A DNA stretch of 56,059 nucleotides, from positions 1 through 56,059 of the IMG/VR virus record IMGVR_UViG_3300033146_004156. The stretch is one strand, 5' to 3'. This DNA comes from a virus. Lineage: Duplodnaviria; Caudoviricetes. Positions 2,860-47,740 of the stretch are shown piece by piece. The notes below the pieces were generated by a model that was given only the letters and a program-made list of their open reading frames with translations, made no database searches and had not been told where the DNA came from. The first letter of the stretch is position 1. Every line of letters starts with the position of its first letter. The position numbers and the translations under genes were made by a program.

Positions 2860-2880
2860 AGCTAAGATATAGGAGAAAAT

Positions 2881-3378: not shown

Positions 3379-3379
3379 A

Positions 3380-3784: not shown

Positions 3785-3806
3785 TTCTTTCCTTTTTTAT
3801 TTTATA

Positions 3807-4484: not shown

Positions 4485-4516
4485 TATTTCTCCCTTTACA
4501 ATATTTATAATTTAAA

Positions 4517-25496: not shown

Positions 25497-25519
25497 AATT
25501 AGGAGGAAACTCCTAATTT
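25496..25519. terminator. Hairpin between convergent gp18 and Hef-like genes, probably a bidirectional terminator
   Basis: AAATTAGGAG-GAAA-CTCCTAATTT: perfect 10-bp stem with a GNRA loop. Confidence 0.75.
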
Positions 25520-28426: not shown

Positions 28427-28580
28427 AATAATCCTTCTTTTCAAGATGAGATTCAAAACACTCTTATCCTTTATATACTATATTATACCATGTTTAACAT
28501 TAAACCTAGCTTAAATTCGCCTCAAGAACCGTTTAATTCTGTAATTCTTTCGTATTTTATAAATAACTAAAAGGATTATT

Positions 28581-28916
28581 ATGGATTTTAATAGCTTCAA
28601 GAAAAAGAAAACAATTACAGAATCGAAAAATGAATTAGAGCTAGAATTAAAAATACTAGAATCTTCATTAGAATCAGCAGCAGATTTAACAACTGGCGAC
28701 AGAACAATAATTGAAAAGAAAATTATATCTGTTCAAGGTAAAATAGAATTACTTGAAAATACAGTTGCTGGTGATATTGCAGTTGCAACTACAGATTTTA
28801 GTTTATGTTCTGGAAAAGAAGATTGTGAATGTGGTAAATGCGCACTACTAAAAAGACCAGAACTTAAAGAAGCGGTTATAAAAGCTTCACCATTTACTGG
28901 ATTCTTCGGGAGTTAA
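28581..28916 (+). CDS. Late hypothetical protein, possibly an internal head protein
   Basis: Late promoter at 28558-28565; MDFNSFKK..ITE N-terminus; ENTVAGDIA motif. Confidence 0.65.
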   Translation: MDFNSFKKKKTITESKNELELELKILESSLESAADLTTGDRTIIEKKIISVQGKIELLENTVAGDIAVATTDFSLCSGKEDCECGKCALLKRPELKEAVIKASPFTGFFGS

Positions 28917-28918
28917 TA

Positions 28919-29764
28919 ATGGCTTTAGATTATGATACTCAAATAAATAATACTTTAATATTTAATAGTACTCGTACATATACACTTGCAATTTTAGATG
29001 GCTTAAATAATATTAAACATTTTGTAAGAAATGAAGATGGTTCAGCTTCCGAAAAAGTAGTACCTATTACATTTGGTAACTATGAGAAATCTATAGCTTT
29101 AGCTGATATAGACCAAGCTACTTTAGAACAAGGTAACTGGAATTTTGTTCCAAGAATGGTCTTAAGTTTTGAAGGTATGACTAAAGCAGGTGAAAGAACT
29201 ACGAATAAATTCCAGAAACTTTCCAAGAAGATTGAGTACGAGGGTAAGACTTTATTAAATTATGGTTTCAATTCAGTACCTTATGACTTTCAATTTGTAT
29301 TAACACTACAAGCAAGAGGATTAAATGAAGCATTTCAAATAGTAGAACAAATTTTACCTATGTTTCGTCCTTCTTATAATATACAGATTCAAGAATATCC
29401 AATGTTTGATGAAATGACGGAGACTCAGTTACAGATAACAGACCCTAGCTTTGAAATTATAGATGAATTTGCTGCAGAAGATATAAACTTAATTAATGTT
29501 ACATTTTCACTAAACTTAAGAGCGAATCTTTATATGCCTTTACAGTTAATTGCACCTATCGAGACTGTTAAACTGTTTAATCATTTATGGGAAACTCAAG
29601 ATTATAAAGAAAGCCAAAAAGCTTCATATTACAAATGGAATGTTTGTGCAGAAGGTAATCATAAAATTTATAATACTGAGATTGAAGAACATTATGCTCC
29701 GCCTAAGCTAAATGATAAACCAAAAATACAAGAAAAAGAAAAAGTGGTTTGCGAAAAACCATAA
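28919..29764 (+). CDS. gp15: Tail sheath stabiliser / tail terminator
   Basis: VPITFG, VPRM, VPYDFQF.L...QIVEQILPMFRP. Confidence 0.9.
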   Translation: MALDYDTQINNTLIFNSTRTYTLAILDGLNNIKHFVRNEDGSASEKVVPITFGNYEKSIALADIDQATLEQGNWNFVPRMVLSFEGMTKAGERTTNKFQKLSKKIEYEGKTLLNYGFNSVPYDFQFVLTLQARGLNEAFQIVEQILPMFRPSYNIQIQEYPMFDEMTETQLQITDPSFEIIDEFAAEDINLINVTFSLNLRANLYMPLQLIAPIETVKLFNHLWETQDYKESQKASYYKWNVCAEGNHKIYNTEIEEHYAPPKLNDKPKIQEKEKVVCEKP

Positions 29765-29805
29765 ATATCGTAAGATATTAAGAAATATAAAAACAAGGAA
29801 TTATA

Positions 29806-31074
29806 ATGGCATCAACAGGTATATTACAAAGAAGAGATTTAAAAGCCAATTTAATAAGTGGAATTCCATCAGATATTAATTATGGTTGGAGCGGGCAAGT
29901 TGCGATTGGTGAATTTGTTTTTGCCACAGACTTTAAAGAAATTGGATTTGTTGACAGTACAGATACATTAGTTTGGAGAGATATTGATGACTTTGGTAAT
30001 TCAATTTCGACAATTGAAGATCTATCTAATGTGGATGTAACTGGATTAACAGATACTAACATATTACAGTATGATTCAGCCACTTCTTCTTGGAAACCCG
30101 TAGCATCAACGCTAAGTATAACAGAATTAACTGATGTTGATACTGCGACTGTTGCTCCTACAGATACTCAAACTTTAGTGTGGGATAATGCTAATTCTTT
30201 ATGGAAACCTGGCACAATTGATACTGGTGATACTTCATCAGGTTTAGAAGCTATAGATGATGGTAATGGTATAGGTTGGAGATTAATAGGAACAGACCCT
30301 TTAAATTATGGAAATATTGGACTAAATAGTATCGATTTTTCATATTCTTCTGGTAGTTCTAATATATTTGGACCAACACAATCCAACTCTTTTACAATTG
30401 GTTATAATACTATAGCTTCAGGTAAAATGGCTTTTGCTGGAGGTTATACTACTGTTGCTTCTGGTGATAGATCTTTTGCTGGTGGCGGAGGAACTGTTGC
30501 TTCGGGTGATGCTTCTTTTACTTATGGAACAGATAATATAGCATCTGCAACAAATTCAACTACTTTTGGGCAGGGTATTAATGCAATAAATAATGCTTCT
30601 TTTGCGTTAGGAAGTTTTAATGTTGGTACTGATATTAACACAATTTTAGAAGTTGGTATTGGTACATCAGATAGTATAAGAGCAAACGGATTAGAAGTTT
30701 ATTTAGATGGAACTGCAACTTTACCAGAAGCAACTCCAGCAGAAATAACTAATAGAGGTGACCAAGCAATTGCAACTGTTGGATATGTTAATACAGTTGC
30801 CGGTGGCGGTGGCGGTGGCTCTTCTACTCCATTAGATATAGAAATAGCATTTGCAAATATTACAAATATGTTATATGATGTAAATAATTATTTAACTAAA
30901 ACTGTTTATGCTGCATTTGAATCTTATAATGCTGGTTATACAAGTAATTATACTTATGGTTCAAATAATAATCTTGATACTTTAATTATTAAAAATGATG
31001 TTGCGGTGGTTGTATTAACAGTTACATACGGATATGATGCAAATAATAATCTAATAACTGTAACTCGTACTTAG
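29806..31074 (+). CDS. Fibre/adhesin protein with LxDVD repeats and YadA-like head repeats
   Basis: DLSNVD/ELTDVD..L.WD...W repeats; ~14-aa T.ASG..(S/A)FAGG repeats; paralogous core in 45464..46906. Confidence 0.7.
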   Translation: MASTGILQRRDLKANLISGIPSDINYGWSGQVAIGEFVFATDFKEIGFVDSTDTLVWRDIDDFGNSISTIEDLSNVDVTGLTDTNILQYDSATSSWKPVASTLSITELTDVDTATVAPTDTQTLVWDNANSLWKPGTIDTGDTSSGLEAIDDGNGIGWRLIGTDPLNYGNIGLNSIDFSYSSGSSNIFGPTQSNSFTIGYNTIASGKMAFAGGYTTVASGDRSFAGGGGTVASGDASFTYGTDNIASATNSTTFGQGINAINNASFALGSFNVGTDINTILEVGIGTSDSIRANGLEVYLDGTATLPEATPAEITNRGDQAIATVGYVNTVAGGGGGGSSTPLDIEIAFANITNMLYDVNNYLTKTVYAAFESYNAGYTSNYTYGSNNNLDTLIIKNDVAVVVLTVTYGYDANNNLITVTRT

Positions 31075-31083
31075 GACTAAAAT

Positions 31084-32457
31084 ATGAGTGCTACATTAGC
31101 AGAAGACGTAATAGTATTGGATAAAGTTGGTGGAAATATTATATGTGGTTATGGTTTAAATATTTCTAATTTTTTCGGAGAAACATTAAAAAATAAATCT
31201 ATATTAGATCCAATGGCAGAAACTAAATGGTATTGGCCTTTTAATTGTAAAGATTTATTAACCGATACAATAGTGAATAAAGTAGCTATTTCTAACGGAA
31301 TACCAGAACAAGATACACTATTATATAATAATTTTTCGTATCCATGTGTAAAATTAGATTCAACAGAGTATTTAGGCATGGGGTTGATATATAATGGTAG
31401 TGTAAATGAAAATACTTTTCAAAAAACTACAACAATTTCATTTATTTTTAATACTGATAAAATAGTATACGGTAGTAAAATAGCACAAGGGCATCACACT
31501 ACTGGAACAGCTGTATTATTAACTAGTAATTTATTTGGTTTACATTTTACTTATGATAACACTACATCATTAACACTGGGTATTTATAATTCAAATGGTG
31601 ATTATGATTATTGTTATACATCTGGGATAAACTTTCAAATAAATACTAGTTATCATGTGACTTGTGTCTTAGATGCTGCCACATCATCAGCAAAAATATA
31701 TATCGATGGTATATTAAGAGGTTCATCAACAATTTCAGGGATAGTACAAACATATTATGATGCTAATGTATATTTTAATTGGTCAACAACCTCAAATCAA
31801 GGAAATATTAAAATAGCTAATTTTAAACTTATTAAAAAAGCTTTAAGTGCTTCTGAAGTTTTAACATTATCTACTGAAGAAATTAATGTACAAGTATTCG
31901 TCCCTATTAAAATTTCAACAAGGAAACATTTTCCAGAAGATCAAGAAGAATCAGAAGACCCAGTTGATACATCTGGGTGGTACCACATCACATTTAATTC
32001 CGATACTTATGGTGATTATGATTTAGATACATTAACTCCAACTTCAGGATTTGGCGGAACATTTGCGAACCATTCGCTAGATTCAAATAATTATTTGACT
32101 TCTACAGGTGCATCTTCTAATAATAGTTTTAAATCTAGAGTTGTTGATAGTATTCATCTTGAGGCAGATAGAAATTATACAGATAAATCAACAACTAGTA
32201 ATTATCGTTGTAAAATTACCTGGGACCCCAATACTAGAACTTGGGATAGAACAGATAATGTAGATTATTGGTTATATCCTATAAATCAAACCGCAAGTAA
32301 TTCTCACTCATTAGGTGTAATTACATCAGACCCAAGATTCTTATGTGATGTTTATGATACAAATACATCGGATTCAAACTCTAGTGGAGAATATTCATTA
32401 TTTCCAAAAAATGCTTTTATTTATTTACATAACGGCGAAAGAATAGAGGAGATATAA
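31084..32457 (+). CDS. Cassette gene A1: LamG/ConA-like lectin domain protein (1 LamG plus a C-terminal domain)
   Basis: MSATLAEDVIVLDKVGGN; HVTCV..KIYIDG..KALSASEV. Confidence 0.75.
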   Translation: MSATLAEDVIVLDKVGGNIICGYGLNISNFFGETLKNKSILDPMAETKWYWPFNCKDLLTDTIVNKVAISNGIPEQDTLLYNNFSYPCVKLDSTEYLGMGLIYNGSVNENTFQKTTTISFIFNTDKIVYGSKIAQGHHTTGTAVLLTSNLFGLHFTYDNTTSLTLGIYNSNGDYDYCYTSGINFQINTSYHVTCVLDAATSSAKIYIDGILRGSSTISGIVQTYYDANVYFNWSTTSNQGNIKIANFKLIKKALSASEVLTLSTEEINVQVFVPIKISTRKHFPEDQEESEDPVDTSGWYHITFNSDTYGDYDLDTLTPTSGFGGTFANHSLDSNNYLTSTGASSNNSFKSRVVDSIHLEADRNYTDKSTTSNYRCKITWDPNTRTWDRTDNVDYWLYPINQTASNSHSLGVITSDPRFLCDVYDTNTSDSNSSGEYSLFPKNAFIYLHNGERIEEI

Positions 32458-33896
32458 TGTCAGCAGAATTAGGTGTTTTAAATAAGATTAGACCACATAA
32501 AGATTTTTATGGTATTCATAAAGATGATTTTAATTCAAATAGAAGTATAGATATATCTAGAGTATTTGATAAAACTCCAAATATTGGCGATAGTACTGTA
32601 GATATTCATGATATTTTTGAAGATGGTAGTTGTTTAGCTACATATCAATTTAATGGGGATGTTACAGATTTAGGTGGGAATTATGATGGAACAAATACAA
32701 ATATAATATTTGAAGATGGAGTATATAATGAATCTAGTAAATTTAGTGGTAACTCATATTCAGATTTAGGATTTAATCTAAACACTAAGTCATTCTCTAT
32801 ATCTATGTGGGTTTATCAATCTAATAATGCATATATATTAGGAAACGTTCAATCTTCAGCTTCTGATTATGGTATTATTTTATATTCTAGAGATGGTTTT
32901 ATACAAATGAGATTCTTCAATTCAAGTGGAACATATTCTTCATTAGATATTATATGTAATAATAATTCTTGGAACCATATAACATATACATATAATAGAG
33001 ATTCTCATATTATAAAAGGATATTTAGACGGTATTTTATTTGATTCAACGATAAATCTACATTTAATAGATATTTCTGCAACATATAACTTAAGATTGGG
33101 TGGATTTCCTAATCCTCATAGTTCTGGGTTTATTGGAAATGTGGATCAATTCCGTGCCTTTAATAGAGTATTAACAGAATTAGAGATAAAAAAACTCTAT
33201 TATGAACAACCACAGAAAAAAATTGTGATGGATATTGAAATGCCTCAAGAATATATTAGTACAGTAAGTAATGTAGACCCATTCGATGATGATTCTGGAG
33301 TTGCTCTTTATCAGTTCGATGGAGATGCATTGGATACTGGTGGTAATTATCATGGAACTAATTCTGGAGTTACATTTGAATCCGGTAAGTATAATCAATG
33401 TGGTGTGTTTAATGGTTCCAATTCTTATATTAGCTCTATTACCACTAATCAACAAGTATATTGTGTTAGTTGTTATATAAACATTAATGATTTTTCAGAT
33501 AGTGGTATTTATAATACACTATCAGATTTTTCTGAATATTCAACTTCGGGAATATTGCTAGCTTTAGATTCTTCCTCACAGAGTATAGTAGGGTTATGTA
33601 GGGATGGCACAAATAGTTCAACTGTAAGTTTTAGTGCTAACATTGATAAGTACTATTTTATAGTATTACAAGTTGATTACAAAACAGTGAGTTTATATAT
33701 AGATGGTAATCTTGTGGATACTCACATTAATGCGAATGATTTTATAATTGCACAAAAAAATACACAAATTGGAGTTTATGGTATTAGTGGTGTGTCATAT
33801 CACTTTAATGGTAAAATAGATCAACTAAGAATATTCAACAGAGCTTTAGATGAAAAAGAGATAAATATATTATATAACGAAAGGGTCTTAAGATGA
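32457..33896 (+). CDS. Cassette gene B1: two LamG domains
   Basis: Two YQF.GD..D.GGNY.GT ... DQ.R.FNR.L..EI..LY modules. Confidence 0.85.
   Translation: MSAELGVLNKIRPHKDFYGIHKDDFNSNRSIDISRVFDKTPNIGDSTVDIHDIFEDGSCLATYQFNGDVTDLGGNYDGTNTNIIFEDGVYNESSKFSGNSYSDLGFNLNTKSFSISMWVYQSNNAYILGNVQSSASDYGIILYSRDGFIQMRFFNSSGTYSSLDIICNNNSWNHITYTYNRDSHIIKGYLDGILFDSTINLHLIDISATYNLRLGGFPNPHSSGFIGNVDQFRAFNRVLTELEIKKLYYEQPQKKIVMDIEMPQEYISTVSNVDPFDDDSGVALYQFDGDALDTGGNYHGTNSGVTFESGKYNQCGVFNGSNSYISSITTNQQVYCVSCYININDFSDSGIYNTLSDFSEYSTSGILLALDSSSQSIVGLCRDGTNSSTVSFSANIDKYYFIVLQVDYKTVSLYIDGNLVDTHINANDFIIAQKNTQIGVYGISGVSYHFNGKIDQLRIFNRALDEKEINILYNERVLR
33243..33404 (+). repeat. 162-nt direct repeat, second copy at 38841-39002
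   Basis: Only 4 mismatches by eye; encodes the 5' edge of a LamG module in B1 and B2. Confidence 0.9.
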
Positions 33897-33949
33897 GTGC
33901 AGAATTAGCAATACTTAACAAAGCAAAAAACGAATCTGGCCATACTGTT
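33808..33949 (+). repeat. Direct repeat spanning the B/C gene junction, second copy at about 39406-39556
   Basis: Shared ggtaaaatagatcaa..agaatattcaacagagcttta..gaaaaagagataaatatattatataacgaaa and atgag(t/c)gcagaattagcaatacttaacaaagcaaaaaacgaa. Confidence 0.85.
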
Positions 33950-35986
33950 GCAGCACCTTATTACGATGTAGATGAAACTAAACTGGATATTAGTGAAAAA
34001 ATTATAGGTAAAGATACAACCAATATTCATAATGTTTTCAATGATGAGAGCTGTATCGCTACATATCAATTCAATGGAGATGCTAATGATTTAAGTGGGA
34101 ATTATAATTTCACTAGTAATTTAGTAGATTATGTGGATGGTAATTTTCATAAAGCTATTGAATTTAATAATATCAATTCGCTATTAACATCTACAAGTTT
34201 ACAACCAATATTTGCACAAACAGATATTTCTATAAGTCAGTGGATTAAAGTAAAAGATTTTACATCCTTTGAATATATATGGAATGTTGGCGCAACCGTA
34301 GATAACTTTGCAATGACTCTTTATTTTAATAATGATACAATAGTATTTGGTTTAGTTGATAACGAGTATAATACACATAATCTTGTTGTACCCATAATAA
34401 AAAATAATGAATGGGTGCATATTGCTATAGTTCTAAATAATACTCACAGTAAATTATATATTAATGGAACGCTTGCTGGAGAAAACACTGATGTGTTTAC
34501 AAGAATTAGTATAACTCATGGGTTATTTGTTGGCGGGTGGGGTACTCATATAGATTTAAATAAATATACTGGACAATTAAATCAGATGAGAATATTTAAT
34601 AAAATATTATCAAATACTGAAGTTAAAGATTTATATAATGAATACAATATAGTCTCCGGATACGAAGGAACTTACTCAACAACAGATTTACACGATATCT
34701 TTAATGATGGTTCTGCAATTGCCACTTATACAATGGATGGTAATGTTAAAGATCTTTCAGGAAATTATGATGGTGTTGCTACTAATATTAATTATGCTAA
34801 GGGTAATTTTTATGGTTCAAGAAGTTCAGTTTTTGATGGGGCATCAAATATTGATTTATTAGAGCATGCATCGGCTTTTGAATCTAATAACTATTCAGTT
34901 TCGGGTTTTGTAACATTTAATAAACTCGAAGGGCAGAGAGGCATATTTAATAGTTTTTATTATCAAGCAAGTAATGTGTATTGGGGAATATTTATAGGCT
35001 ACTTCGGTTCTGCATTACAGGTTGTTCATATGAATAATGGTCCATGGGGCCTGGATGAACAACTAATTTCATTAGACTGCCTTATAGAAGATACTAAACA
35101 TTTTATTACAATAACTAGTAATGATGCATATGTTAAAATATATGCCGACAACATTTTAATTTCAGAAAAACAACTACCTTTAGCTGGTTGGGCTACAACA
35201 AAGGCACAAAAAATAGGGGATCTATTAACTGCTCAAATAGAGCAACTAAGAATATTTAACAGAGCATTAACAGAATCCGAAATAAATACACTATACACTG
35301 AAACTTTACCTCGCCCAATATCTGAAGATATTTCTGATATTTTTGAGGATAATAGTATTTTAGCTCATTATAAATTTAATAATAATGCAGTTGATGAGAC
35401 TGCAAATTATAATGGAACAGTACTTGATACTACTTATACAACAGGAAAATTTAATAAAGGTTTAGAGTTAAGTGGATATGGAAATAGTTATTTAAGTATC
35501 CCGCTTAAATTAAGTACAGTTTCATCTATTAGTTTATGGATAAACTTTAATAATTTTGACCACCGTATTGGTATATACAGTGAGTGGTGGAATTCATATG
35601 ATTGTTGTCATAACATGTGGGCTGCTGGTGGAGAAATACGAACACATACCCAACATGTTTGTACTTCTAGTGGTCAAACAAATGATTACCGCTCTAATTT
35701 AAAATTAGATTTAAATACTTGGTATAATGTAACTGCGATTTATGATGATACTAAACATGAAGTATATATTGATGGAATTAAAGTTATAGATGGCACTATA
35801 CAAGCTTTTACAGGAGGAAGGAATTTACGTTTTGGACCTTATTATCAAGATGTTTCAGTTTATCCAGATAGAACATTAGATGGTAGTATAGACCAAATAA
35901 GAATTTTTAATAAGGCTTTATCACATAAAGAAGTCTTAGATTTATATAATGAAATGCCAGAATTAAAGGCGGTAATACAAAAATGA
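33893..35986 (+). CDS. Cassette gene C1: three LamG domains
   Basis: MSAELAILNKAKNE; three modules ending RIFN(K/R)(I/A)L; C-terminus PELKAVIQK. Confidence 0.85.
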   Translation: MSAELAILNKAKNESGHTVAAPYYDVDETKLDISEKIIGKDTTNIHNVFNDESCIATYQFNGDANDLSGNYNFTSNLVDYVDGNFHKAIEFNNINSLLTSTSLQPIFAQTDISISQWIKVKDFTSFEYIWNVGATVDNFAMTLYFNNDTIVFGLVDNEYNTHNLVVPIIKNNEWVHIAIVLNNTHSKLYINGTLAGENTDVFTRISITHGLFVGGWGTHIDLNKYTGQLNQMRIFNKILSNTEVKDLYNEYNIVSGYEGTYSTTDLHDIFNDGSAIATYTMDGNVKDLSGNYDGVATNINYAKGNFYGSRSSVFDGASNIDLLEHASAFESNNYSVSGFVTFNKLEGQRGIFNSFYYQASNVYWGIFIGYFGSALQVVHMNNGPWGLDEQLISLDCLIEDTKHFITITSNDAYVKIYADNILISEKQLPLAGWATTKAQKIGDLLTAQIEQLRIFNRALTESEINTLYTETLPRPISEDISDIFEDNSILAHYKFNNNAVDETANYNGTVLDTTYTTGKFNKGLELSGYGNSYLSIPLKLSTVSSISLWINFNNFDHRIGIYSEWWNSYDCCHNMWAAGGEIRTHTQHVCTSSGQTNDYRSNLKLDLNTWYNVTAIYDDTKHEVYIDGIKVIDGTIQAFTGGRNLRFGPYYQDVSVYPDRTLDGSIDQIRIFNKALSHKEVLDLYNEMPELKAVIQK

Positions 35987-36606
35987 GTAAAGAATTAACT
36001 AGTGCTAGAAGTGTTGTAGCTTATGGTATGAGAGCAATAAAAGATGAAAATTTTAACTCTGAGACAATGATTGATGTTACATTAGATGCTTCCATGAATA
36101 ATCCTGTATCGTCAGGCACAAAAATTATAATACCATATCGAGATGGTGATTATGAACAAGTCTATGAAGTACCTAACAAATGTGTTAGATTATCAGATGG
36201 AACTATGTGGTGTCATACATACAATGTTCCCGATAATAGTAATGAAGCTGGAGTAAAAGCAGCTATCAAAGCAGAATTTGGTGACTCTGCTGTAATTTTA
36301 GATTGGTCCGATTTAATTGCGTATCATTCAGTCAATGGGGATTTACAACCTATGTTTGATTTAGCTACAAATCTTAACATAACACTTTATAGCGGTATTT
36401 ATGGAATATGCCAATATTATGGAGACTATACCCAATCAAGTTCAAAAAAATATTTTGTTGCTAGTGAAGCACAATATCATACATCTAGTTTTTCTGTATT
36501 TGCAACACTTGGGGTTGGTGAAGGCACACACGGAGATGATTTAGCAAATATGAGTTCTGGAGATGGACAATTTCCTTGTTATGTTAAAATTCCGACACCA
36601 GTATAA
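35983..36606 (+). CDS. Cassette gene D1: scaffold with a non-LamG passenger domain
   Basis: MSKELTSARSVVAYGMR...TMIDVT N-terminus shared with 41681..42988. Confidence 0.7.
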   Translation: MSKELTSARSVVAYGMRAIKDENFNSETMIDVTLDASMNNPVSSGTKIIIPYRDGDYEQVYEVPNKCVRLSDGTMWCHTYNVPDNSNEAGVKAAIKAEFGDSAVILDWSDLIAYHSVNGDLQPMFDLATNLNITLYSGIYGICQYYGDYTQSSSKKYFVASEAQYHTSSFSVFATLGVGEGTHGDDLANMSSGDGQFPCYVKIPTPV

Positions 36607-36609
36607 ATA
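36602..36609 (+). promoter_or_regulatory. Late promoter at the start of the second four-gene cassette
   Basis: TATAAATA overlaps the D1 stop, 17 nt before the A2 ATG. Confidence 0.65.
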
Positions 36610-36626
36610 GTATAAAAAGGACTTAA

Positions 36627-38678
36627 ATGAGTGCAGAATTAGCGGAAGATATACAAGTCCTTGATAAAATTGGTGGAAATAAATTTTCAGACACTAAAGG
36701 TGTATATATAATAGTTGATGATTTTACATCACATTACAAGTTAGAAAGCAATGCACTAGATGCAACAGGAAACTACAATGGTACTGAACTAGGAAATACA
36801 TACGAATTGGTAAATGGTAAAGGGTCAGTAGCTAGTTTTGATGGAGTGGATGATTATATAACTATACCTAGTGATGCTACATCATTAGATAATACTACAT
36901 TTTGTTTTTGGTACCGAGTAACAGGCACAGGAACTGGTGGAGATGATTCTGAATTACCATCTGATGTGTTCTTCAGTAAGGGTAGATATAATAGTTCTTT
37001 CACTGGAATGGTTGTACTTAGAGCAAACGATGCTACAGTAGCCAAGGTAATGTATCATAAAGGATCTGGAGTTATTGGTAATGCATTATACGTGTTTGAT
37101 ATACCAGCTGAGGTAGGAACTTTCCACCATTTAGCTTTCCATCATGATAATTCAGGTGTTGATAGTGTTCTTACAGTATTTATTGATGGAGAATATCATG
37201 GATCTCATTCTACTACTAACTCAACATTTGATAATTCTTTAGATTTAATGATAGGGGCTGGACTCACATATAATAATGGGACTATAGGTGATTTTCTCAA
37301 AGGTAACATATCAAACCTAAGAATTTATGATAGAGTATTATCTTCGCTAGAGATAAATTCAATTTATAACTCAGAATTGGATAATACACCAAAATATAAA
37401 AACAAACTAAGTGTCTTAGACTTCTTAACAGATACTGACCCTACTCCTCAAGATTATGTAGCGTATTACCCTTTGACTGGAACAGCTGAGGATAAGACTG
37501 GAAATTATGATGGTGTTGAGAATGGTGGTTTAACTTATGTTGATGATTCTGAGAGAGGAAGTGTTGTAAATTTTGATGGAGTTGATGATATTATTTCTGA
37601 TTCAATATATAATATTAGTGACTCAGGTAGTTTATCATATTATATTAAGTCTAATGATTTAATTAAACAACATATTCAAACGAGTAAATTTTTCTGTTAT
37701 AGAGACTATATTTTTATATGGGATGCCAATAATGGAAAGGAAAATTATACATCATATAATATGAGTAGTTTTATGAAAACAGGTGAATGGAATCACATAT
37801 ACGTAGATACAAATACTATAGCCGTTAATGGTCATATTATAGATGTCACAGGAGTAAGCGGGGTAGCTTCGTATATATATGATGTGGGGACTATTGGTGG
37901 AGGTTTTAATAGAACGAATGGATTTTATTACGCTAACACTCAATTATCAAGTATAAGAATCTATGATAGAGTACTATCAACAAAAGAAATAGAAACAATT
38001 TACAACTATGAAAAGATTACACATAATGTTCCAGTAGATGATGGACTAATTGCTTATTATCCATTGAAGAAAAATTCGAAGGATAATTGGTACAATCAAT
38101 TCAATGGCACTGATACAGGTGTTGTTTATGATGGACAGAGTGCTAGTTTTGATGGAGTTGATGATAAAATCGATATTAGTCAAATTTCGAGTCAACTAAA
38201 AATACAAAATTTTAGCATAAGTTGTTGGGTAAAAAAGGTAGATGATTCAAATGTTACATTTTTCGGCTACACTAATCATAATTACTATTATGGATACACT
38301 CTTAATTCAATTAACTCTAAGTATAGATTCACATCATATGGTGATAATGGAGTAGCTCAGATTGATATTCAATCAGAAAGTAATATCGTAGTTGGAAAAT
38401 TTCAACATGTAGTGGTTACAATTTCTGACAATAATATTCGTATGTATATTAATGGAGAGATAATCATATCTGAATCAAGTCAAAATATTCTGTTTGATAC
38501 TACCATGTATAGTCTCATAGGCGAAAATTCAATCAGAAACGATTATAATAGATATATGAAGGGCAACTTATCTGATTTCAGATTTTACAACAAAGCTCTG
38601 AGTGATAATGAAATAAAAGAAATCTACGACACTGAATTACCAGAATTTATAGATTTAACAATACCAAAAAAAGGATAA
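36627..38678 (+). CDS. Cassette gene A2: three LamG domains
   Basis: MSAELAEDIQVLDKIGGN; three SFDGVDD/NFDGVDD...R(I/F)Y(D/N)(R/K)(V/A)LS modules. Confidence 0.85.
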   Translation: MSAELAEDIQVLDKIGGNKFSDTKGVYIIVDDFTSHYKLESNALDATGNYNGTELGNTYELVNGKGSVASFDGVDDYITIPSDATSLDNTTFCFWYRVTGTGTGGDDSELPSDVFFSKGRYNSSFTGMVVLRANDATVAKVMYHKGSGVIGNALYVFDIPAEVGTFHHLAFHHDNSGVDSVLTVFIDGEYHGSHSTTNSTFDNSLDLMIGAGLTYNNGTIGDFLKGNISNLRIYDRVLSSLEINSIYNSELDNTPKYKNKLSVLDFLTDTDPTPQDYVAYYPLTGTAEDKTGNYDGVENGGLTYVDDSERGSVVNFDGVDDIISDSIYNISDSGSLSYYIKSNDLIKQHIQTSKFFCYRDYIFIWDANNGKENYTSYNMSSFMKTGEWNHIYVDTNTIAVNGHIIDVTGVSGVASYIYDVGTIGGGFNRTNGFYYANTQLSSIRIYDRVLSTKEIETIYNYEKITHNVPVDDGLIAYYPLKKNSKDNWYNQFNGTDTGVVYDGQSASFDGVDDKIDISQISSQLKIQNFSISCWVKKVDDSNVTFFGYTNHNYYYGYTLNSINSKYRFTSYGDNGVAQIDIQSESNIVVGKFQHVVVTISDNNIRMYINGEIIISESSQNILFDTTMYSLIGENSIRNDYNRYMKGNLSDFRFYNKALSDNEIKEIYDTELPEFIDLTIPKKG

Positions 38679-38681
38679 GAA

Positions 38682-39503
38682 ATGTCAGCAGAGTTAGCAA
38701 CAATACAACAAATTAAGAAAAAGAAAGATATGTATGCAATACATGAAGATAATTTTATTCCAAATAAACAGATTGATATTTCTGGGATGTTTCCTGAGAC
38801 TACATTAATAGATAAGAAAATAGTCCTAGATATAGAAGAACCTCAAGAATATATTAGTACAGTAAGTAATGTAGACCCATTCGATGATGATTCTGGAGTT
38901 GCTCTTTATCAGTTCGATGGAGATGTTTTAGATACTGGTGGCAATTATCATGGAACTAATTCTGGAGTTACATTTGAATCCGGTAAGTATAATCAATGTG
39001 GTTATTTTGATGGAAATCATCAAATTACAACAAATGTTCCATATTTTACAGGAGACTTTACAATCAGTGCTCATATCAAAACAGATGGAACAGCTGGAGG
39101 ATACTTGGCATCTGAATGGAATTCTTCTGGTGGGTATGGTATTTTTATTTCTATCGGACATGATGCTATTGGACTTGGGGCATATAACGGGACTAATCAA
39201 ATATCTACATGGGGTTTGGTAGATCATGACAATGGTAATAGCTGGAATCATGTCACATTCTCCTTTAATGGAACTACTGATGTTGACGGTGTTAAATTAT
39301 TTTTCAATGGTAAGGAAGTTGGATCTGGTTCATCAACTAGTGCAGTGTTAAGTGGTGCTTCACATCCTTTATATATTGGAACTACAATGCATAGTACGCA
39401 ATTTGATGGTAAAATAGATCAATTCAGAATATTCAACAGAGCTTTAAACGAAAAAGAGATAAATATATTATATAACGAAAAAATTGAAAGGCATCTTACA
39501 TGA
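38682..39503 (+). CDS. Cassette gene B2: one LamG domain
   Basis: N-terminus and PQEYISTVSNVDPFDDDSG block shared with B1. Confidence 0.85.
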   Translation: MSAELATIQQIKKKKDMYAIHEDNFIPNKQIDISGMFPETTLIDKKIVLDIEEPQEYISTVSNVDPFDDDSGVALYQFDGDVLDTGGNYHGTNSGVTFESGKYNQCGYFDGNHQITTNVPYFTGDFTISAHIKTDGTAGGYLASEWNSSGGYGIFISIGHDAIGLGAYNGTNQISTWGLVDHDNGNSWNHVTFSFNGTTDVDGVKLFFNGKEVGSGSSTSAVLSGASHPLYIGTTMHSTQFDGKIDQFRIFNRALNEKEINILYNEKIERHLT

Positions 39504-41659
39504 GCGCAGAATTAGCAATACTTAACAAAGCAAAAAACGAAGCCGGTCATACTGTTTGTGTTCCAGAATATGATTACGATCCTTCTGATGAAGTTGATAT
39601 TAGTCGTAAAGTTTTGGGTGAATCTACACTTAATATAGTAGATGAAGCAACTATACACAATACTGATCCATTTGGTGATGGTAGTCTAGTGCATAAAATG
39701 GAAATGAATGACATTAATCCTACCATTGGCACAGCTGTAACAAATAATAATATTACTTTTGTTGATGAAAGTATGTTTGGTGGATCAAGTGTGTTTAATG
39801 GCACAAATTCAACATTTCTTTACGATGCAGATATTAAACCTGTTTTGACTAATCATTTCACAATAAGTGCATTTTGTAAAGCAAGTTCGATAATCAATAG
39901 CTCATATATATATTTGAGCGGTTGGACTACTCAAAATGCTAGTAGTTTAATACAATTACATCCTACTGGAATTTATGCATCTATCATTGATGGTTCTGGG
40001 CACTGGCATAATGTCTCATACATACGCACACCACCTATAAATGAATGGATTAGTATAATACTCATTTATTCAAGTACAGGATTGAAGTTATATGTGAATG
40101 GAGATTTAAAAAACGAAATATCAGGATCATTCAGCATAAAAAACATAGATGCAAATGTGCAAGTTGGTGGTTGGTATGATAATAATTCTAATTATTTCGA
40201 TGGTTTAATAGACCAAGTGGAAATATATAATAGACCATTAGAACATCATGAAGTACAAAAAATTTACAATTTAAGATCTTCTAATTATTACGAAGATACT
40301 ACAGATGTTAGAAAAATCCATGATATCTTTAATGACAGTTCTGCGATTGCCACTTATACAATGGATGGTAATGTCAAAGATTTAAGTGGAAATTATGATG
40401 GAGTTCCAACTAATATTAGTTATGGAAAGGGCGATTTTTATGGTAGTAGAAGTACTGTATTTAATGGTGTTGATAGTAAAATAATGATACCTAATCCTGA
40501 TGATTTTAAGATTGAAAACGATAGTGTAAGTGTATGGTTTAAAGTTGAGCACTCATCTAATGCAGTTGTTGTATTTAATAATAATACAGCTTCTTCTGGT
40601 GGTGGACGGACAATCAATGGTGGATTTTTAATAAAATTGGTTGATGGAACTATTCGCACAGATCATTTTATGAAGGACGTTGAGACTAATACAGACTACT
40701 TGGGTAATACTAACACTTCATATGCTGGTATATCTGTCACACCGTATAATTCAAACACTTGGAATAATTTAGTTATTGTTCGAGAATCCCTAAACACACA
40801 CAAAATATATTTAAATGGCATATTTGTAAATTCAGTATCCACATTGCAAAATATGAGGTGGAGTTCAGACTCTAGCAGGGATAATGTAAGTATAGGTATG
40901 TTATATGAAAGTGATACAGATTATTTTCCACTAAATGGTGAAATAGACCAACTAAGAATTTTCAACAGAGCCTTAACTGAATCTGAAATAAATGTACTTT
41001 ATACAGAAACTCTTCCAAGACCTCAAACAGTAAATAATTCTGATGTCTTTAATGATGGTAGTATTTTAGCTCATTATAAGTTCAATGGAAATGCATTAGA
41101 CGAAACTGGTAATTATAATGGAGTTGAAACAAATGTAACTTATGATGATGATGGTAAGTTTGGAAAATGTTTAGAAATGCCAGATATTGGTAATACTGGA
41201 AAAATTAATACTGGGACGATAACAGGTGACGTAATATCCTTAAGTTTATGGGCCAATATACCAATTTTTAAAGTTAGTGGGAGTTTATTCTATACTACAT
41301 CAAAAATTGGTATATATCTTATTGATAATGGGATTGCCATGCATTACAATAATGTTTGGTCTGGACCATTAAATTGTGTATTGCCTATAGATAATTTATT
41401 TCATCATTATGTGGTTACATCAAGAGACAATTTGTGTGTGTTGTATATAGATGGTATAGATAGTGCACAATTTGATATTACTGGAGGCACTCCACTAACA
41501 AATATAGAAATTGACATCGGCGGGGATGGAACCAGCTCATATTGCTTAAATGAATCTTTGACTGACCAACTAAGAATCTTCAACAGAGCCTTAACTCCTT
41601 TAGAAGTCTTAAAATTATATGAAGAAAAACCAGAATACAAAGCGGTTATTACAAAATGA
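39500..41659 (+). CDS. Cassette gene C2: three LamG domains
   Basis: MSAELAILNKAKNE; C-terminus PEYKAVITK. Confidence 0.85.
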   Translation: MSAELAILNKAKNEAGHTVCVPEYDYDPSDEVDISRKVLGESTLNIVDEATIHNTDPFGDGSLVHKMEMNDINPTIGTAVTNNNITFVDESMFGGSSVFNGTNSTFLYDADIKPVLTNHFTISAFCKASSIINSSYIYLSGWTTQNASSLIQLHPTGIYASIIDGSGHWHNVSYIRTPPINEWISIILIYSSTGLKLYVNGDLKNEISGSFSIKNIDANVQVGGWYDNNSNYFDGLIDQVEIYNRPLEHHEVQKIYNLRSSNYYEDTTDVRKIHDIFNDSSAIATYTMDGNVKDLSGNYDGVPTNISYGKGDFYGSRSTVFNGVDSKIMIPNPDDFKIENDSVSVWFKVEHSSNAVVVFNNNTASSGGGRTINGGFLIKLVDGTIRTDHFMKDVETNTDYLGNTNTSYAGISVTPYNSNTWNNLVIVRESLNTHKIYLNGIFVNSVSTLQNMRWSSDSSRDNVSIGMLYESDTDYFPLNGEIDQLRIFNRALTESEINVLYTETLPRPQTVNNSDVFNDGSILAHYKFNGNALDETGNYNGVETNVTYDDDGKFGKCLEMPDIGNTGKINTGTITGDVISLSLWANIPIFKVSGSLFYTTSKIGIYLIDNGIAMHYNNVWSGPLNCVLPIDNLFHHYVVTSRDNLCVLYIDGIDSAQFDITGGTPLTNIEIDIGGDGTSSYCLNESLTDQLRIFNRALTPLEVLKLYEEKPEYKAVITK

Positions 41660-41680
41660 TAAACAATATAAAGGAAAGAT

Positions 41681-42988
41681 ATGTCAAGTGAATTAACACA
41701 AGCAAAACAAATTAAACCTTATGGTATGAGAATTATATCACCAGAAAGATACGATGAAAATACAATGATAGATGTTACAGAATCTGTAGAAAATTCCCGC
41801 ACTAATGTTGAGCATGTTGTAATAAATGGTAGTACAACAACATTAGAAGATTTAAGTAATTACGCAGATATTTCAGCAATTGAAGCATCTGGCACGTTTC
41901 TAACTGATTCAACTTATGGAATTTCTTGGGGGCAACATATTGAATCTGATACATCATTAGATTTAATTATAGATGATGTCAATATATCAGAAGTACAATT
42001 TACTATAAGTGGTATATTAAATTCAAATTCGTTAGGATGGATGCATATTCTTATATATAATGCCGATGAAGAATATATAAGTTCTTCAACTATTAGAGAT
42101 GCCTGGGCAGCTGATTCAGTAGGCCAGACTTATGTAAGAGATGATATACTAATACAATCTCAATCAGCAATTAATATTATAAACGATACCATTATAGTTA
42201 AAGATATTAATATTACAAAAATAGTGGTTGGAATTTATTATATGCCTGGTTATAGTAAATCTCCAAGATGGATAAATTATTTAAAATATATTACTTCTAC
42301 TATAAAAGATGTAGAAATTAACACAACACACATTCACGATATTTTTGAAGATAATTCTATACTAGCGACTTATAGATTTAATGGCGATACTAAAGATATT
42401 GGTGGGAATTATAATGGTACTAATAATGGAGTTACATTTAATTCTGGAAAATTCGGAGAAGCTGGTACCTTTAATGGTGTGGATAGTAATATAGATATTG
42501 AGAATAATTCAAAATTTAATGTAAATACAACAGGTGCTATTACAATTTCTGGGTGGACTAAACTTGATAATTTTACAATAGAAAGTTATTTATTCAGCAC
42601 TAATAGTAATTCAAATACAACTTACAGCTATTATTTAGGAATAAATAATACTTCTAAAGTTGCATTATGCGGACATTGTAATGGAACTAATTGGAGTAAT
42701 GCGCATGGTACTACTGTTATAAAGCCAAATACTTGGTATTTTTTAACTGGTATTATAGTTAATGGTGGAGGTATTTCTATTTATCTTAATGGTAAATTAG
42801 AAGGGACAGCAACAGCACAACCAACAACTAATAATGTTATTGATGTTTGTATAGGGAGAAGTAGAGAATATTATTTAGATGGTAAAATAGATCAATTAAG
42901 AGTATTTAATAGAGCTTTAACAAAAGATGAAGTTTTAACTCTTTATAATGAAAGAGAAGATTATAAATGTGTAATTCCTATGCAATAG
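41681..42988 (+). CDS. Cassette gene D2: passenger domain plus one LamG domain
   Basis: MSSELTQAKQIKPYGMR...TMIDVT; HIHDIFEDNSILATYRFNG...DQLRVFNRALT. Confidence 0.8.
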   Translation: MSSELTQAKQIKPYGMRIISPERYDENTMIDVTESVENSRTNVEHVVINGSTTTLEDLSNYADISAIEASGTFLTDSTYGISWGQHIESDTSLDLIIDDVNISEVQFTISGILNSNSLGWMHILIYNADEEYISSSTIRDAWAADSVGQTYVRDDILIQSQSAINIINDTIIVKDINITKIVVGIYYMPGYSKSPRWINYLKYITSTIKDVEINTTHIHDIFEDNSILATYRFNGDTKDIGGNYNGTNNGVTFNSGKFGEAGTFNGVDSNIDIENNSKFNVNTTGAITISGWTKLDNFTIESYLFSTNSNSNTTYSYYLGINNTSKVALCGHCNGTNWSNAHGTTVIKPNTWYFLTGIIVNGGGISIYLNGKLEGTATAQPTTNNVIDVCIGRSREYYLDGKIDQLRVFNRALTKDEVLTLYNEREDYKCVIPMQ

Positions 42989-43427
42989 TACCTTTTCCCA
43001 AATCATCATATTTTTGAAATAACTCTAGGTCTTTTTTAAATTTTACAGTTAAAGTATTATAAATTTGTGCTTTAACTGTGAATCTTTCGTAGTCACCTTT
43101 AACATAACATTTTTCCATATCTCTTAATAAATAATGATAACGAACTAAATTTTTAGTATAGTCACTAATAAATGGAATATCTGCAATCATTAAATATGAT
43201 GCTTCTTCGTGGTCAGTAAAACTATATTCTTTATTAATAATATCTTCTGGTTTTTGATAAGCGGTAAATGGTTTTCCAATATCATGCAAAAATGCAGCAG
43301 GAATCATTTTATAATTACCGGCTTTTACTGTTTCATAAACAACTCTTAAGGTATGAACAACAACACCATGTTTGTGCCATGCATTCTGCCTCCAAAAAGC
43401 TGTTGTCATAATCGCTTTAATATTCAT
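42978..43427 (-). CDS. HD-domain phosphohydrolase
   Basis: WHKHGVVVHT...AAFLHDIGKP...DHEEAS...VRYH; early promoter at 43452-43485. Confidence 0.85.
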   Translation of the reverse strand: MNIKAIMTTAFWRQNAWHKHGVVVHTLRVVYETVKAGNYKMIPAAFLHDIGKPFTAYQKPEDIINKEYSFTDHEEASYLMIADIPFISDYTKNLVRYHYLLRDMEKCYVKGDYERFTVKAQIYNTLTVKFKKDLELFQKYDDLGKGTIA

Positions 43428-43534: not shown

Positions 43535-45382
43535 CTAACCCCAAGTATTAATAGTTGGTGTATACTTCTTGATTTTATCAACAATTTTACCTGTTAGTAT
43601 TGATAAATCTATTTTTTTACCAGCTTCTTTAACTTTAACGTACGCAGAATCTACAACATAGAACCCACCTGTTTCTGAAGCTTTAATCGCTGAATCTTGT
43701 CCCTTTTTATTAAAGGCAAATACGATAGCTCCATCCATATACTTCTTGATTTTAGAACCCATATTAACAATTTTTTTCATTGTTAATGCTGCTCCCTCGT
43801 GAGTATCAATTAAAATATCTTCAGGTACAACACGACTTCTTTCTTGATTTTGAGTTAAAGCAACTTTAACATCATTAACAACCCAAACAATATGGATATT
43901 TTCTTTAGCATAACCAAGTTCTGCAGTGTCCATAATAATATCGTTAAGCTTTTGGATATCATCTAAAGTAACATCAAATATAATATTTGGTTTTCTCTCT
44001 GGATTAGATGCAGCGATTGTATCAAATAATCTTCTTTGTTTCTTATCAGATATACCTAAATCTTTAACAATTTTATGTACTACTGAAACATTTTTAGGAT
44101 TCTTTAAATCAATATCTTTTAAAGATACTCCCATCTGTTTCATAACTTTATCATTTAACATAGGAGATTTCATAGCAAATACTTTAAGAGCATCAACATC
44201 TAAAATCTTCCCTTCAATTCCTAAAAGATTTTGAGTCACAAATCCTTTACCTGAATTATGATTTACTAAAAAATTCTTTAGTATAAATCTTTTATCTTCT
44301 TCTTCTATACTAAAACCATAATAATTATTTTCTGGTAATTCTTTTATTTCAAACCCCATTCTTAATACATTTTTATTCTTTTTATTAATAGGTTGTTTAT
44401 ATTCTAACACAATTGGTAAATCACTAAAATCATTTCCACTAATAGAAATTCTGTGATATTGTCTTATTTCACCATTCCAATTGATATTTTTTACAACACT
44501 TTTTGTTCTATAACCCAATGAACCACATAAAAATTCAATATCTTCTTTTAAACCATCAAATTTTGTTAAAATTTCAAACATTCCGCCAATATTACAACCA
44601 TCGGAATCTATTAAACCGGCAAGTACTTTTTTTCTATTTTCACTTGAAGTAATTAATAATTCTTTTGGGATTCGTTTTTCTGTATTAATATAACAATTAT
44701 CTCTAACATAATTAAGAAATGGGTTAATTTTTGAACCCTTTGTTGTAAGAGAATATGTTTTACAACCTAATTTTGTTGTTTTAATTGGGTTAAATGAATA
44801 ATTATTTATTTCATATTTTTCACTAATATGAGATATTAGTGGAGAATCATTCTCAATTGTAAAATTGGGGGTATTTCTTGTACCGTCTCCAAGCCAAAAT
44901 CCAATTAACCAAGGGTCTATTTCAAAATCATAATTATTTTCAAATTCAATTAATTCCGATTTATATAACTTAAGATATTTTTTAACTGATGGTTTAGTTT
45001 TTAAATATTCCGAATAAGTAAGATTATAAATTTGGCCTTTTTTAAATCCACATTTATTTGTGCTGCAAATAAATGTATGAATATGATTAATATTACAAGT
45101 ATAAGAGTCACCCTTATTTGTTGTAACTTCTAACATTTTTTCTCTACCAGAATGTAATTCTTTAACAGTACGAAGTTTTGAGTCGGGTCCCATTAATTTA
45201 TCATTAATATTTATATCTTGCACTTTTTTATATTCACCATTATACATTAGTATTTCTGTATCTTTAGTATGACACCCGGCTCCACCAGCTAATATAACAA
45301 TATTTCCAAATTTTGGATATGCTTTTTTACCTAGTGTAATTAGTACTTCATTAATAAATTCATTTTTAAAATCAAATTTCAT
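43535..45382 (-). CDS. P-loop NTPase/kinase (AAA_33/zeta-toxin-like) interrupted by an intein
   Basis: Exteins join to IVILAGGAG|SGKGF (Walker A); later LDVD, NIIFDVT and ALTQNQERSRVVP motifs. Confidence 0.85.
   Translation of the reverse strand: MKFDFKNEFINEVLITLGKKAYPKFGNIVILAGGAGCHTKDTEILMYNGEYKKVQDININDKLMGPDSKLRTVKELHSGREKMLEVTTNKGDSYTCNINHIHTFICSTNKCGFKKGQIYNLTYSEYLKTKPSVKKYLKLYKSELIEFENNYDFEIDPWLIGFWLGDGTRNTPNFTIENDSPLISHISEKYEINNYSFNPIKTTKLGCKTYSLTTKGSKINPFLNYVRDNCYINTEKRIPKELLITSSENRKKVLAGLIDSDGCNIGGMFEILTKFDGLKEDIEFLCGSLGYRTKSVVKNINWNGEIRQYHRISISGNDFSDLPIVLEYKQPINKKNKNVLRMGFEIKELPENNYYGFSIEEEDKRFILKNFLVNHNSGKGFVTQNLLGIEGKILDVDALKVFAMKSPMLNDKVMKQMGVSLKDIDLKNPKNVSVVHKIVKDLGISDKKQRRLFDTIAASNPERKPNIIFDVTLDDIQKLNDIIMDTAELGYAKENIHIVWVVNDVKVALTQNQERSRVVPEDILIDTHEGAALTMKKIVNMGSKIKKYMDGAIVFAFNKKGQDSAIKASETGGFYVVDSAYVKVKEAGKKIDLSILTGKIVDKIKKYTPTINTWG
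44255..45274 (-). mobile_element. 340-aa intein with a LAGLIDADG homing endonuclease
   Basis: Starts CHTKDTEILMYNG; block B TCNINH; DPWLIGFWLGDG and LAGLIDSDG motifs; ends LVNHN followed by Ser. Confidence 0.95.
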
Positions 45383-46915: not shown

Positions 46916-47740
46916 ATGGCAAATTTTTACACATACGACTTAAGAAATACAAGTGGTAATATTATATCTGGGACACCCGATGTAGTTAGAATTTATATTA
47001 GAGATGGTTATAGATTAGAAGTTGCATTAGTTGATGTAACGGCAATAAACCCTAATATGGAAATAACAATTAATGGCTTCTCGTTTAATTTTGGTGATGC
47101 TTTAACATCAGTAGTTAATGGAGATCAGACACATATTTGGAATTGGGGACTTAGTTTTCCTGGTGTACAAGGACTTTATAATTATCTTGAAACTAATGGA
47201 AGTGTTTTTAATATTTCTACAACTGATTTAGATTTAAATGTGCCGTATAGTGAATATACAAAAAACGGATCTACATGGGATTTAATATCTTGGGGAGAAG
47301 TGAAAGAAGCACCGTCAGATAATGCTCAGTATATTAGAAAAAATAAAGGTTGGTCTGTACTTGCAGCAGTAGAAGAAGCACCGCCCGGTAGTTTAGAATA
47401 TACAAGATCTAATGGTGGTTGGAAAGTGGTTGAACATATTCCAGAAGTATTAGATGATACTAAGTCATATGTTAGAAAATATGGGCAATGGGTAGAAGCT
47501 TATTTTGCAGGTGGACCAAAATTTAAAACTTATGAATATACTGCCACAGAAGGTCAATCTGTTTTTAGTGGTGTAGATAATAATGGTGAAACCTTATTAA
47601 TTAGCAATAATGTTAATGTACAGTGTTATTTAAATGGTTATTTATTAAAATTAGGTGATGCCACAATAACATCAACTACAATTACATTAACAAACAGTGT
47701 TACTTTAAATAGTAGTTTAAGTTTTATAGAATATTTATAG
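46916..47740 (+). CDS. Fibre-associated protein with three tandem foldon-like motifs
   Basis: EAPSDNAQYIRKNKGW, EAPPGSLEYTRSNGGW, IPEVLDDTKSYVRKYGQW; C-terminal YTATEGQSVF..YLNG virion domain. Confidence 0.7.
   Translation: MANFYTYDLRNTSGNIISGTPDVVRIYIRDGYRLEVALVDVTAINPNMEITINGFSFNFGDALTSVVNGDQTHIWNWGLSFPGVQGLYNYLETNGSVFNISTTDLDLNVPYSEYTKNGSTWDLISWGEVKEAPSDNAQYIRKNKGWSVLAAVEEAPPGSLEYTRSNGGWKVVEHIPEVLDDTKSYVRKYGQWVEAYFAGGPKFKTYEYTATEGQSVFSGVDNNGETLLISNNVNVQCYLNGYLLKLGDATITSTTITLTNSVTLNSSLSFIEYL

Follow-up and report, generated by a model that had tools for sequence, protein, structure and literature searches.

What does a tailed phage do with eight consecutive late genes that all open alike and fall twice into the same order of four? 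The question is raised by positions 31084-42988 (plus strand) of a 56,059-nt stretch of viral DNA (Duplodnaviria; Caudoviricetes; IMG/VR record IMGVR_UViG_3300033146_004156), referred to here as the window, a 56-kb fragment of a viral record that is estimated to be 36% complete and has a G+C content of about 30%. Each of the eight predicted proteins begins with MSx(E/T)L, and the genes run A-B-C-D, A-B-C-D (A1 to D1, then A2 to D2). This cassette most likely encodes a set of adhesins that attach themselves to a tail fibre and have a share in deciding what the phage sticks to. The proteins are read as fibre-associated adhesins because their anatomy matches that of phages with multiple receptor-binding proteins (RBPs) and that of the gp38 adhesin; on balance they probably are monomeric and docked by short N-terminal heads on the distal module of the fibre, with the duplication supplying two alternative subunits for each class of head.

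The shared opening was sought in a six-frame scan of the window for open reading frames (ORFs) of at least 40 aa beginning M-S-x-[ETDQ]-L, which returned eight matches, all of them cassette genes; the run of eight such genes reported in an initial annotation of this DNA is thereby confirmed. Neighbouring genes overlap or lie close together, at spacings of -4 to +21 nt, and an AAGGA-type ribosome-binding site precedes each of them. Their Ser-2 codon is AGT, AGC or TCA, so both serine codon families are used, and the common start must therefore have been kept by selection at the protein level; this also rules it out as a mere feature of translation initiation.

The pairing of the genes, in the order A-B-C-D twice, was borne out by BLASTP. 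A1 and A2 match over residues 1-18 only (78%) and D1 and D2 over residues 1-33 only (55%), while B1/B2 and C1/C2 match along their full length (C1/C2 at 37% over 749 columns), and the relationship between the B and C proteins also begins at residue 1. When the eight N-termini are aligned, they reveal one architecture common to the B, C and D heads, consisting of MSxEL, a basic/hydrophobic stretch, an aromatic-Gly/Met strand and phi-D-(I/V)-(S/T), and a distinct A head of the form MSAELAxD..phi..K-phi-GGN. The four short scaffolds proposed initially thus stand as classes, with the amendments that the conserved stretch in A and D is only about 18-33 aa long and that the heads of B, C and D are mutually paralogous. 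When 20 heads were compared, 15 of them assigned to a class by gene position and five, from database proteins, by reading of their sequence, the nearest neighbour was of the same class in every case (20/20), and identity over residues 6-36 was 0.33-0.51 within classes versus 0.19-0.29 between them. By inspection the heads are hydrophilic and carry neither a signal peptide nor a membrane segment. A YD-like look (YxYD..NNL) is a visual impression only; RHS_repeat gave no Pfam match at E<=0.01 in the heads or in the fibre at 29806-31074. An interpretation of the heads as T4-type capsid-targeting or prohead-protease signals, for which L-x-E is the motif, was rejected, since L-x-E occurs only in A heads and class-specific heads in a conserved order would be left unexplained.

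Related cassettes were found on two contigs by searching JGI metagenomes with an alignment of C heads (2 of 28 stretches). On the first, L015 (11.1 kb), the gene of an 848-aa fibre precedes genes of 263, 377, 260 and 972 aa that correspond to A, B, C and D and start MSAELAADV..KKVGGN (A), MSAELAVLNKIK..MY..LDISGIFP (B), MSAELAILNKAKN.SG.T..DYD..LDIS (C) and MSAELAIANQVKSYGMR (D). The second, L016 (2.5 kb), encodes a fibre end, A, B and the start of C, after which the contig is cut. The order A-B-C-D is kept in all four cassettes, two in the window and one on each contig (that of L016 as far as its cut), in agreement with the conservation among relatives by which the initial annotation had proposed to judge its own model; cassette number varies as it had also suggested, with one in L015 and two in the window. 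BLASTP matches of the L015 and L016 proteins to those of the window lie mainly in the first 22-60 residues, with one B match reaching residue 87, at 35-63% identity. Beyond the heads, L015-B and L016-B contain FG-GAP_2 repeats (70.8 and 74.3 bits, Pfam), L015-D combines FG-GAP_2 (51.7 bits) with DUF285 leucine-rich repeats (47.5 bits), L015-C shows only a LamG match that, at 23.2 bits, stays below the cut-off of 27.6, and the two A proteins (263 aa) have no Pfam match. Because the relatives match mainly at their N-termini and their distal parts carry other Pfam families, the heads, of about 20-58 aa, are on these comparisons the conserved, defining element, and the distal domains are exchangeable cargo. 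A role specifically in lectin display, as first put forward, does not survive this result, as the FG-GAP propellers and DUF285 repeats borne by the relatives' heads make LamG one of several cargos.

Outside these contigs, cassette heads were found in few proteins. Word-based searches of 5.8 billion proteins turned up a single partial relative of the C type, P0002, and nothing for D1. A HMMER search with C1 gave 16,983 proteins at E<=0.001, nearly all of them generic LamG proteins; inspection of the N-termini of those listed that are shorter than 1,300 aa identified cassette-type heads in five, three of the C class (P0002, P0006, P0009) and two of the B class (P0015, P0109). P0006 and P0109 are both recorded on a 158,915-bp contig and probably represent one related genome. 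The C-head alignment found nothing in IMG/VR (0 of 44 stretches), C heads gave no confirmed stretch in a genome collection (0 of 4), and no relative of the cassette came out of close-relative scans of viral contigs, for which D1, C1, P0015, C heads, B heads and the fibre end served as queries; the loci that such scans did return proved, on checking, to share only generic fibre or LamG segments. Among 50,697 phage records, megablast with positions 28500-43000 gave zero matches, and tblastn gave none for A1 or L015-A, two records for D2 and six for C1, in both cases by the LamG part only and for C1 never spanning residues 1-48; no deposited phage genome in this set encodes cassette heads by these four queries. 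Two sequencing runs, from two studies, contain contigs of 200-600 nt at a depth of about 2-8, some of them identical to the cassette region; the joints in these contigs have sides of only 21-36 nt with 85% likeness, were flagged as unreliable and are uninformative on cassette number. One of the runs bears the label hydrothermal vent metagenome; as a possible source sample of the window, it is not taken as evidence of habitat.

In the window itself the cargo is dominated by LamG. Pfam places Laminin_G_3 (PF13385; ConA-like lectin/glucanase superfamily) stretches in A1 to D2 in the numbers 1, 2, 3, 0, 3, 1, 3 and 1, which are exactly the 14 modules counted in the initial annotation, with scores of 43.8-150.9 bits in seven of the eight proteins (gathering score 27.6 bits) and none in D1. 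No Pfam family was found for A1 residues ~270-457, D1 34-207 or D2 ~35-213, and atlas look-ups with D1 and with A1 residues 270-457 named no family, every score being below threshold. There was no beta-helix or depolymerase family among the Pfam matches of the cassette proteins. The predicted structure of C1, built from a 49-row alignment, has a mean pLDDT of 81 and consists of three beta-sandwiches joined by low-confidence linkers, preceded by residues 1-40 at pLDDT <50 with a tentative helix at 2-14; a head that does not fold alone beside confidently predicted modules is what would be expected of a segment that becomes ordered on a partner. The single-sequence fold of D1 (mean pLDDT 36) is unusable. 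By sequence the nearest solved chains are distant, an arabinanase accessory domain (E 2.6e-6) and the pentraxin PTX3 (E 6.8e-4), and Foldseek of the C1 model against the PDB retrieved tandem LG-domain proteins (neurexin, laminin) as well as a jelly-roll subdomain from the binding domains of clostridial toxins, in both cases at 9-18% identity and thus at fold level only. The LamG modules are thus putative binding domains, distantly related in predicted fold to solved structures, and no ligand can be inferred from such matches.

The cassette is linked in the genome to a fibre end. In all three loci (window, L015 and L016), only 9-11 nt separate the start of gene A from a preceding fibre gene, which ends in a common terminal domain of about 82 aa; the fibre ends of the window and L015 are 41% identical over a 140-aa alignment, and in L016 the opening 78 nt code for the same fibre end as in L015. 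A search for homologues of the terminal domain among proteins of 232-739 aa returned the query itself only. The L015 locus is not syntenic with the gp15 locus at which the window's cassette lies. It corresponds instead to 43.5-48.3 kb of the window, its first gene being 97% identical to 43535-45382 and its last 75% to 48026-48334, and its fibre has an N-terminal half that matches the window's second fibre, joined to a counterpart of the C-terminal part of the fibre at 29806-31074 and followed by the cassette. Since the cassette and fibre end stand at another locus in L015, they have moved together between fibre loci, and by this comparison the C-terminal part of the fibre and the cassette travel as one module, onto a different fibre N-half. 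The initial proposal that the subunits are possibly anchored on the fibre at 29806-31074 accordingly holds in its genomic part, through adjacency in three of three loci and joint relocation, with physical anchoring as a hypothesis. The co-assembly of the heads into a hetero-oligomer and the mixing of subunits from the two cassettes, which the initial annotation also suggested, are likewise hypotheses. That fibre has no Pfam match at E<=0.01 and weak PDB matches to the heads of trimeric autotransporter adhesins (E 0.013 and 0.039); YadA_head repeats, found in the second fibre (Table 1), are also present in the L015 fibre (Pfam). Complex prediction with three copies of fibre residues 283-422 and the B, D and C heads, with the C head as partner, gave 0.33, 0.12 and 0.07 against a mark of 0.32; covering these three heads and no controls, it yielded no verdict and counts neither for nor against binding. 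Weak, foldon-like matches to the end of the Fibritin_C profile (about 20-24 bits, near the cut-off) occur in 45464-46906, in 46916-47740 and in the L015 fibre (1961-4507).

Table 1. Cassette genes, fibres and late-promoter-like boxes of the window
Feature	Position	Strand	Remarks
Late-promoter-like TATAAATA	28558..28565	+	16 nt before orf111, heading the orf111-gp15-fibre-A1 to D1 run
gp15-like tail sheath stabiliser/completion protein	28919..29764	+	PF16724, E 4.5e-33; phrog_227
Fibre protein, 422 aa, candidate anchor	29806..31074	+	Residues 87-422 match L015 fibre 440-843
Fibre terminal domain, residues 341-422	30826..31071	+	After GGGGGG linker; conserved in L015 and L016 fibres
A1	31084..32457	+	A-class head ~1-32; one LamG; unexplained C-terminal domain ~270-457
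B1	32457..33896	+	B-class head ~1-45; two LamG; the linker that follows the head in B2 stands before the second LamG
C1	33893..35986	+	C-class head 1-40; three predicted LamG beta-sandwiches, 41-251, 262-472, 478-691
D1	35983..36606	+	D-class head 1-33; 170-aa domain without recognised fold; no LamG
Late-promoter-like TATAAATA	36602..36609	+	Overlaps D1 stop; 18 nt before A2 start
A2	36627..38678	+	A-class head ~1-25; three LamG
B2	38682..39503	+	B-class head with conserved linker ~1-58; one LamG
C2	39500..41659	+	C-class head ~1-41; three LamG
D2	41681..42988	+	D-class head 1-33; unexplained middle domain ~35-213; one LamG; phrog_8510 'virion structural protein', E 2.2e-11
Second fibre, 480 aa	45464..46906	+	Counterpart of L015 fibre N-half, 51% over 453 aa; YadA_head repeats
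274-aa fibre-like protein	46916..47740	+	Occupies the place of L015 fibre end and A-B-C-D; phrog_3904 'tail fiber protein'

The two cassettes of the window are linked by DNA repeats at a constant offset of 5543-5706 nt, among them a 200-nt tract that is 92% identical between B1 (33216-33415) and B2 (38814-39013), proteins otherwise no more than 46% identical in amino acids. These repeats indicate, by sequence, that the cassette was duplicated in tandem and that the copies then diverged, although some exchange between them is recent. The 200-nt tract lies far above the rest of the B1/B2 pair and points to recent gene conversion, and B1 resembles B2 with an extra LamG inserted between its head and the conserved linker KIVxDIExPQEYISTVSNV. 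The borders of the LamG modules are conserved at the DNA level in seven to eight copies and could act as recombination sites. The octamer TATAAATA, which we take to be the T4 late promoter consensus, stands before each half of the run: the box at 28558 is likely, from that consensus and its position, to be the start of a transcript through gp15, the fibre and A1 to D1, and the second cassette has a box of its own, as the initial annotation had noted.

How the parts could work together may be set out as follows. Each protein would consist of a short docking head of one of four classes and exchangeable binding domains, the latter being zero to three LamG beta-sandwiches and three domains without a recognised fold in the window, and FG-GAP propellers and DUF285 repeats in the relatives. 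A trimeric fibre would offer, on its distal module, a separate site for each head class to plug into, possibly with contacts to neighbouring heads, and the fibre end would become a multi-subunit tip in contact with the host surface. Tandem duplication, together with a late promoter of its own for the second set, would then offer two different subunits per docking class and with them a wider binding repertoire.

Such an arrangement has partial counterparts in known phages. Secondary RBPs of branched systems, including the K1-5/SP6 adapter system, G7C gp63.1-gp66, CBA120 TSP1-4 and the KP32-type and PhiK64-1-type Klebsiella phages, are described as docking via conserved N-terminal peptides of 7-29 aa (PMC6872550). 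The cassette proteins likewise pair a conserved short N-terminal peptide with a variable distal part and share with these systems the placing of several RBPs side by side with their peptides kept and their distal parts exchanged; their heads are longer, however, at about 20-58 aa, and the cargo of the branched systems is trimeric tailspikes or depolymerases, in contrast to the apparently monomeric strings of LamG, FG-GAP or leucine-rich repeats predicted here. Found only here, in that comparison, are four head classes, three of them (B, C and D) paralogous, in a fixed order and duplicated as a whole set. The gp38 adhesin of T2/T6/S16-type phages is bound to the fibre tip through its N-terminal domain (PMC3157838), encoded as a separate monomeric adhesin by a gene adjoining the fibre gene of a T4-like phage, and built with attachment assigned to its N-terminal and specificity to its C-terminal part, in a modular design that eases host-range change (PMC3157838, PMC12032242), all of which resembles the cassette. 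It differs from the cassette in being a single gene against four classes and eight genes, in having a far longer attachment part, and in carrying a glycine-rich-motif domain instead of LamG and other folds; in the eight proteins the gp38 family gave no Pfam match at E<=0.01, the families listed being of LamG type only, and no glycine-rich-motif pattern was apparent by eye.

LamG strings as such are common among viruses. In the viral structure library BFVD, Foldseek found many multi-LamG proteins (E 1e-38 to 1e-18) under the names structural protein, putative adhesin and baseplate wedge subunit, and tandem LamG/ConA-like jelly-rolls like those of the cassette occur in Synechococcus phages S-PM2, S-SKS1, S-CAM4 and ACG-2014h and in the 'putative adhesin' of Pseudomonas phage PaBG. 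These, unlike the cassette proteins, are single large proteins without MSAEL-type heads, and we know of no four-class cassette among them. The titles and abstract openings of the literature on LamG in phages contain no description of such a cassette. There is also a separate large population of three-LamG proteins of about 620-690 aa with other short heads (MNNRLINTKVAGGGG..., MIRNLFGG..CRTID...), forming dozens of 50%-identity clusters. At the two loci examined, from two further uncultured lineages (L018 9998-11881; L020 9965-11950), the gene of such a protein lies immediately behind a fibre-like gene, which suggests that the pairing of a fibre gene with a short head and LamG string downstream of it is widespread among uncultured phages and has gone undescribed.

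To our knowledge, what is understood of host recognition by T4-like phages comes mainly from trimeric fibres and a single gp38 tip adhesin. In a distant T4-like lineage the locus points to another design, with four fixed heads, swapped binding folds and a set that can be duplicated. If the heads dock on the fibre end, they would be compact natural plug-in tags that explain how uncultured phages re-tool their adsorption, and they would furnish a rule for predicting receptor-binding genes in metagenomes, namely a class-specific head directly after a fibre gene.

Several observations weigh against docking on the fibre as the explanation of the cassette. The three loci belong to one rare lineage, so that fibre adjacency does not amount to three independent observations and only the change of locus counts as an independent event. 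No separate fibre gene accompanies the second cassette, and the terminal domain of the fibre, at 82 aa per chain, is small for four docking sites. The known branched systems dock on T4 gp10-like branching domains, and none was detected by Pfam or PHROGs in the window proteins, which cover 36% of the genome and were compared without a profile-profile search. Copies of the TATAAATA octamer number 28 in this AT-rich window against 24 expected, which is no enrichment, and the promoter reading therefore rests on position, many copies sitting 15-35 nt upstream of gene starts. LamG, FG-GAP and leucine-rich repeats are generic binding folds, whose ligand may not be a host receptor, and the placement of the A-D proteins in the virion is a prediction from the genes. 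A second cassette lacking a fibre gene would also suit virion adhesins or decorations that dock elsewhere, at the baseplate periphery, the neck/collar or the capsid, with the fibre merely co-inherited in the operon. The cassette does come after gp15, a neck/tail-completion gene, and in T4 the whisker gene likewise follows a gp15-type gene; its beads-on-a-string monomeric domains recall capsid decoration proteins, T4 Hoc for one; and phrog_8510, matched by C1, A2, C2 and D2, is filed under 'head and packaging'. This explanation is nevertheless somewhat unlikely, because the L015 cassette stands far from gp15, at the other fibre locus, with only the C-terminal part of the fibre having moved along, and because gene A abuts the fibre end in all three loci.

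That same position directly 3' of a fibre gene is the usual place of tail fibre assembly proteins, and some members, above all the A class, might be assembly or chaperone factors of the fibre that do not last in the virion, a suggestion to which the small A proteins of L015 and L016, lacking a recognisable binding domain, and the divergent A head would lend themselves. It is quite improbable given that A1 and A2 carry one and three LamG modules, that the B, C and D proteins, unlike the known small chaperones, have domains of a binding type and are up to 972 aa long, and that the MSAEL start is common to all four classes. Very improbable is a role as non-structural late proteins, released at lysis or intracellular (binding host envelope material, for example), for which the N-terminus would be a sorting or processing signal. 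Identical first five residues across classes could be such a common signal, and the gene-based placement in the virion leaves room for it, but heads without a signal peptide or membrane segment speak against it, as do the tight packing of the cassette genes within a tail/fibre operon and the class-specific heads in fixed order, which a common signal would not explain. A decidedly unlikely elaboration of fibre docking is that fibre end and heads form one split structure, in which B/C/D heads (helix, strand, YD-like turn, strand) and A heads would complete the terminal domain of each chain, giving a trimer with up to twelve monomeric arms and stochastic 2x2x2x2 choices per chain; if true, it would be a built-in, non-genetic source of a mixed population whose particles differ in binding repertoire, in contrast to known branched systems and their trimeric one-spike-one-receptor logic. 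Docking of separate, monomeric adhesins on the fibre end remains the preferred reading.

The surroundings of the cassette are those of a T4-type phage. Matches to Pfam and PHROGs identify baseplate wedge and hub proteins, a tube cap, four tail-tube paralogues, a sheath, the gp15-like sheath stabiliser, a head-closure protein and a large terminase in the window, and T4-type tail genes with TATAAATA boxes upstream mark a T4-like (Straboviridae-type) late structural operon. Even the closest phages on deposit are remote, with 41% identity between the sheath and that of the Vibrio phage Va1 group and about 35% between gp15 and those of Campylobacter and Vibrio phages. In the Va1 group, the nearest cultured phages, the annotated tail-fibre gene also comes after gp15; these fibre genes were considered as homologues and set aside, as they show no BLASTP similarity to the window's fibre or cassette and have only their position in common. 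The four tail-tube paralogues (phrog_45) lie at 2881-3378, 21205-21918, 21928-22596 and 22629-23201, the last three in tandem just upstream of the sheath gene. Free-standing HNH/homing endonuclease genes occur inside the structural module at 25513-27000 and 54211-54885 (minus strand), one of the two adjoining the large terminase gene at 52323-54245. On L015, between the zeta-like gene and the fibre, a 276-aa gene (1034-1864, minus strand) with APS-kinase-like and cytidylyltransferase-like matches has no BLASTP match among window ORFs of at least 60 aa. In the window, the gene at 43535-45382 (minus strand) encodes a 615-aa P-loop/zeta-toxin-like protein (phrog_5268) that is split by an intein with Hint and homing-endonuclease domains; its L015 orthologue, of 275 aa, is 97% identical on either side and lacks the insert, so that the two form an intein-plus/intein-minus pair.

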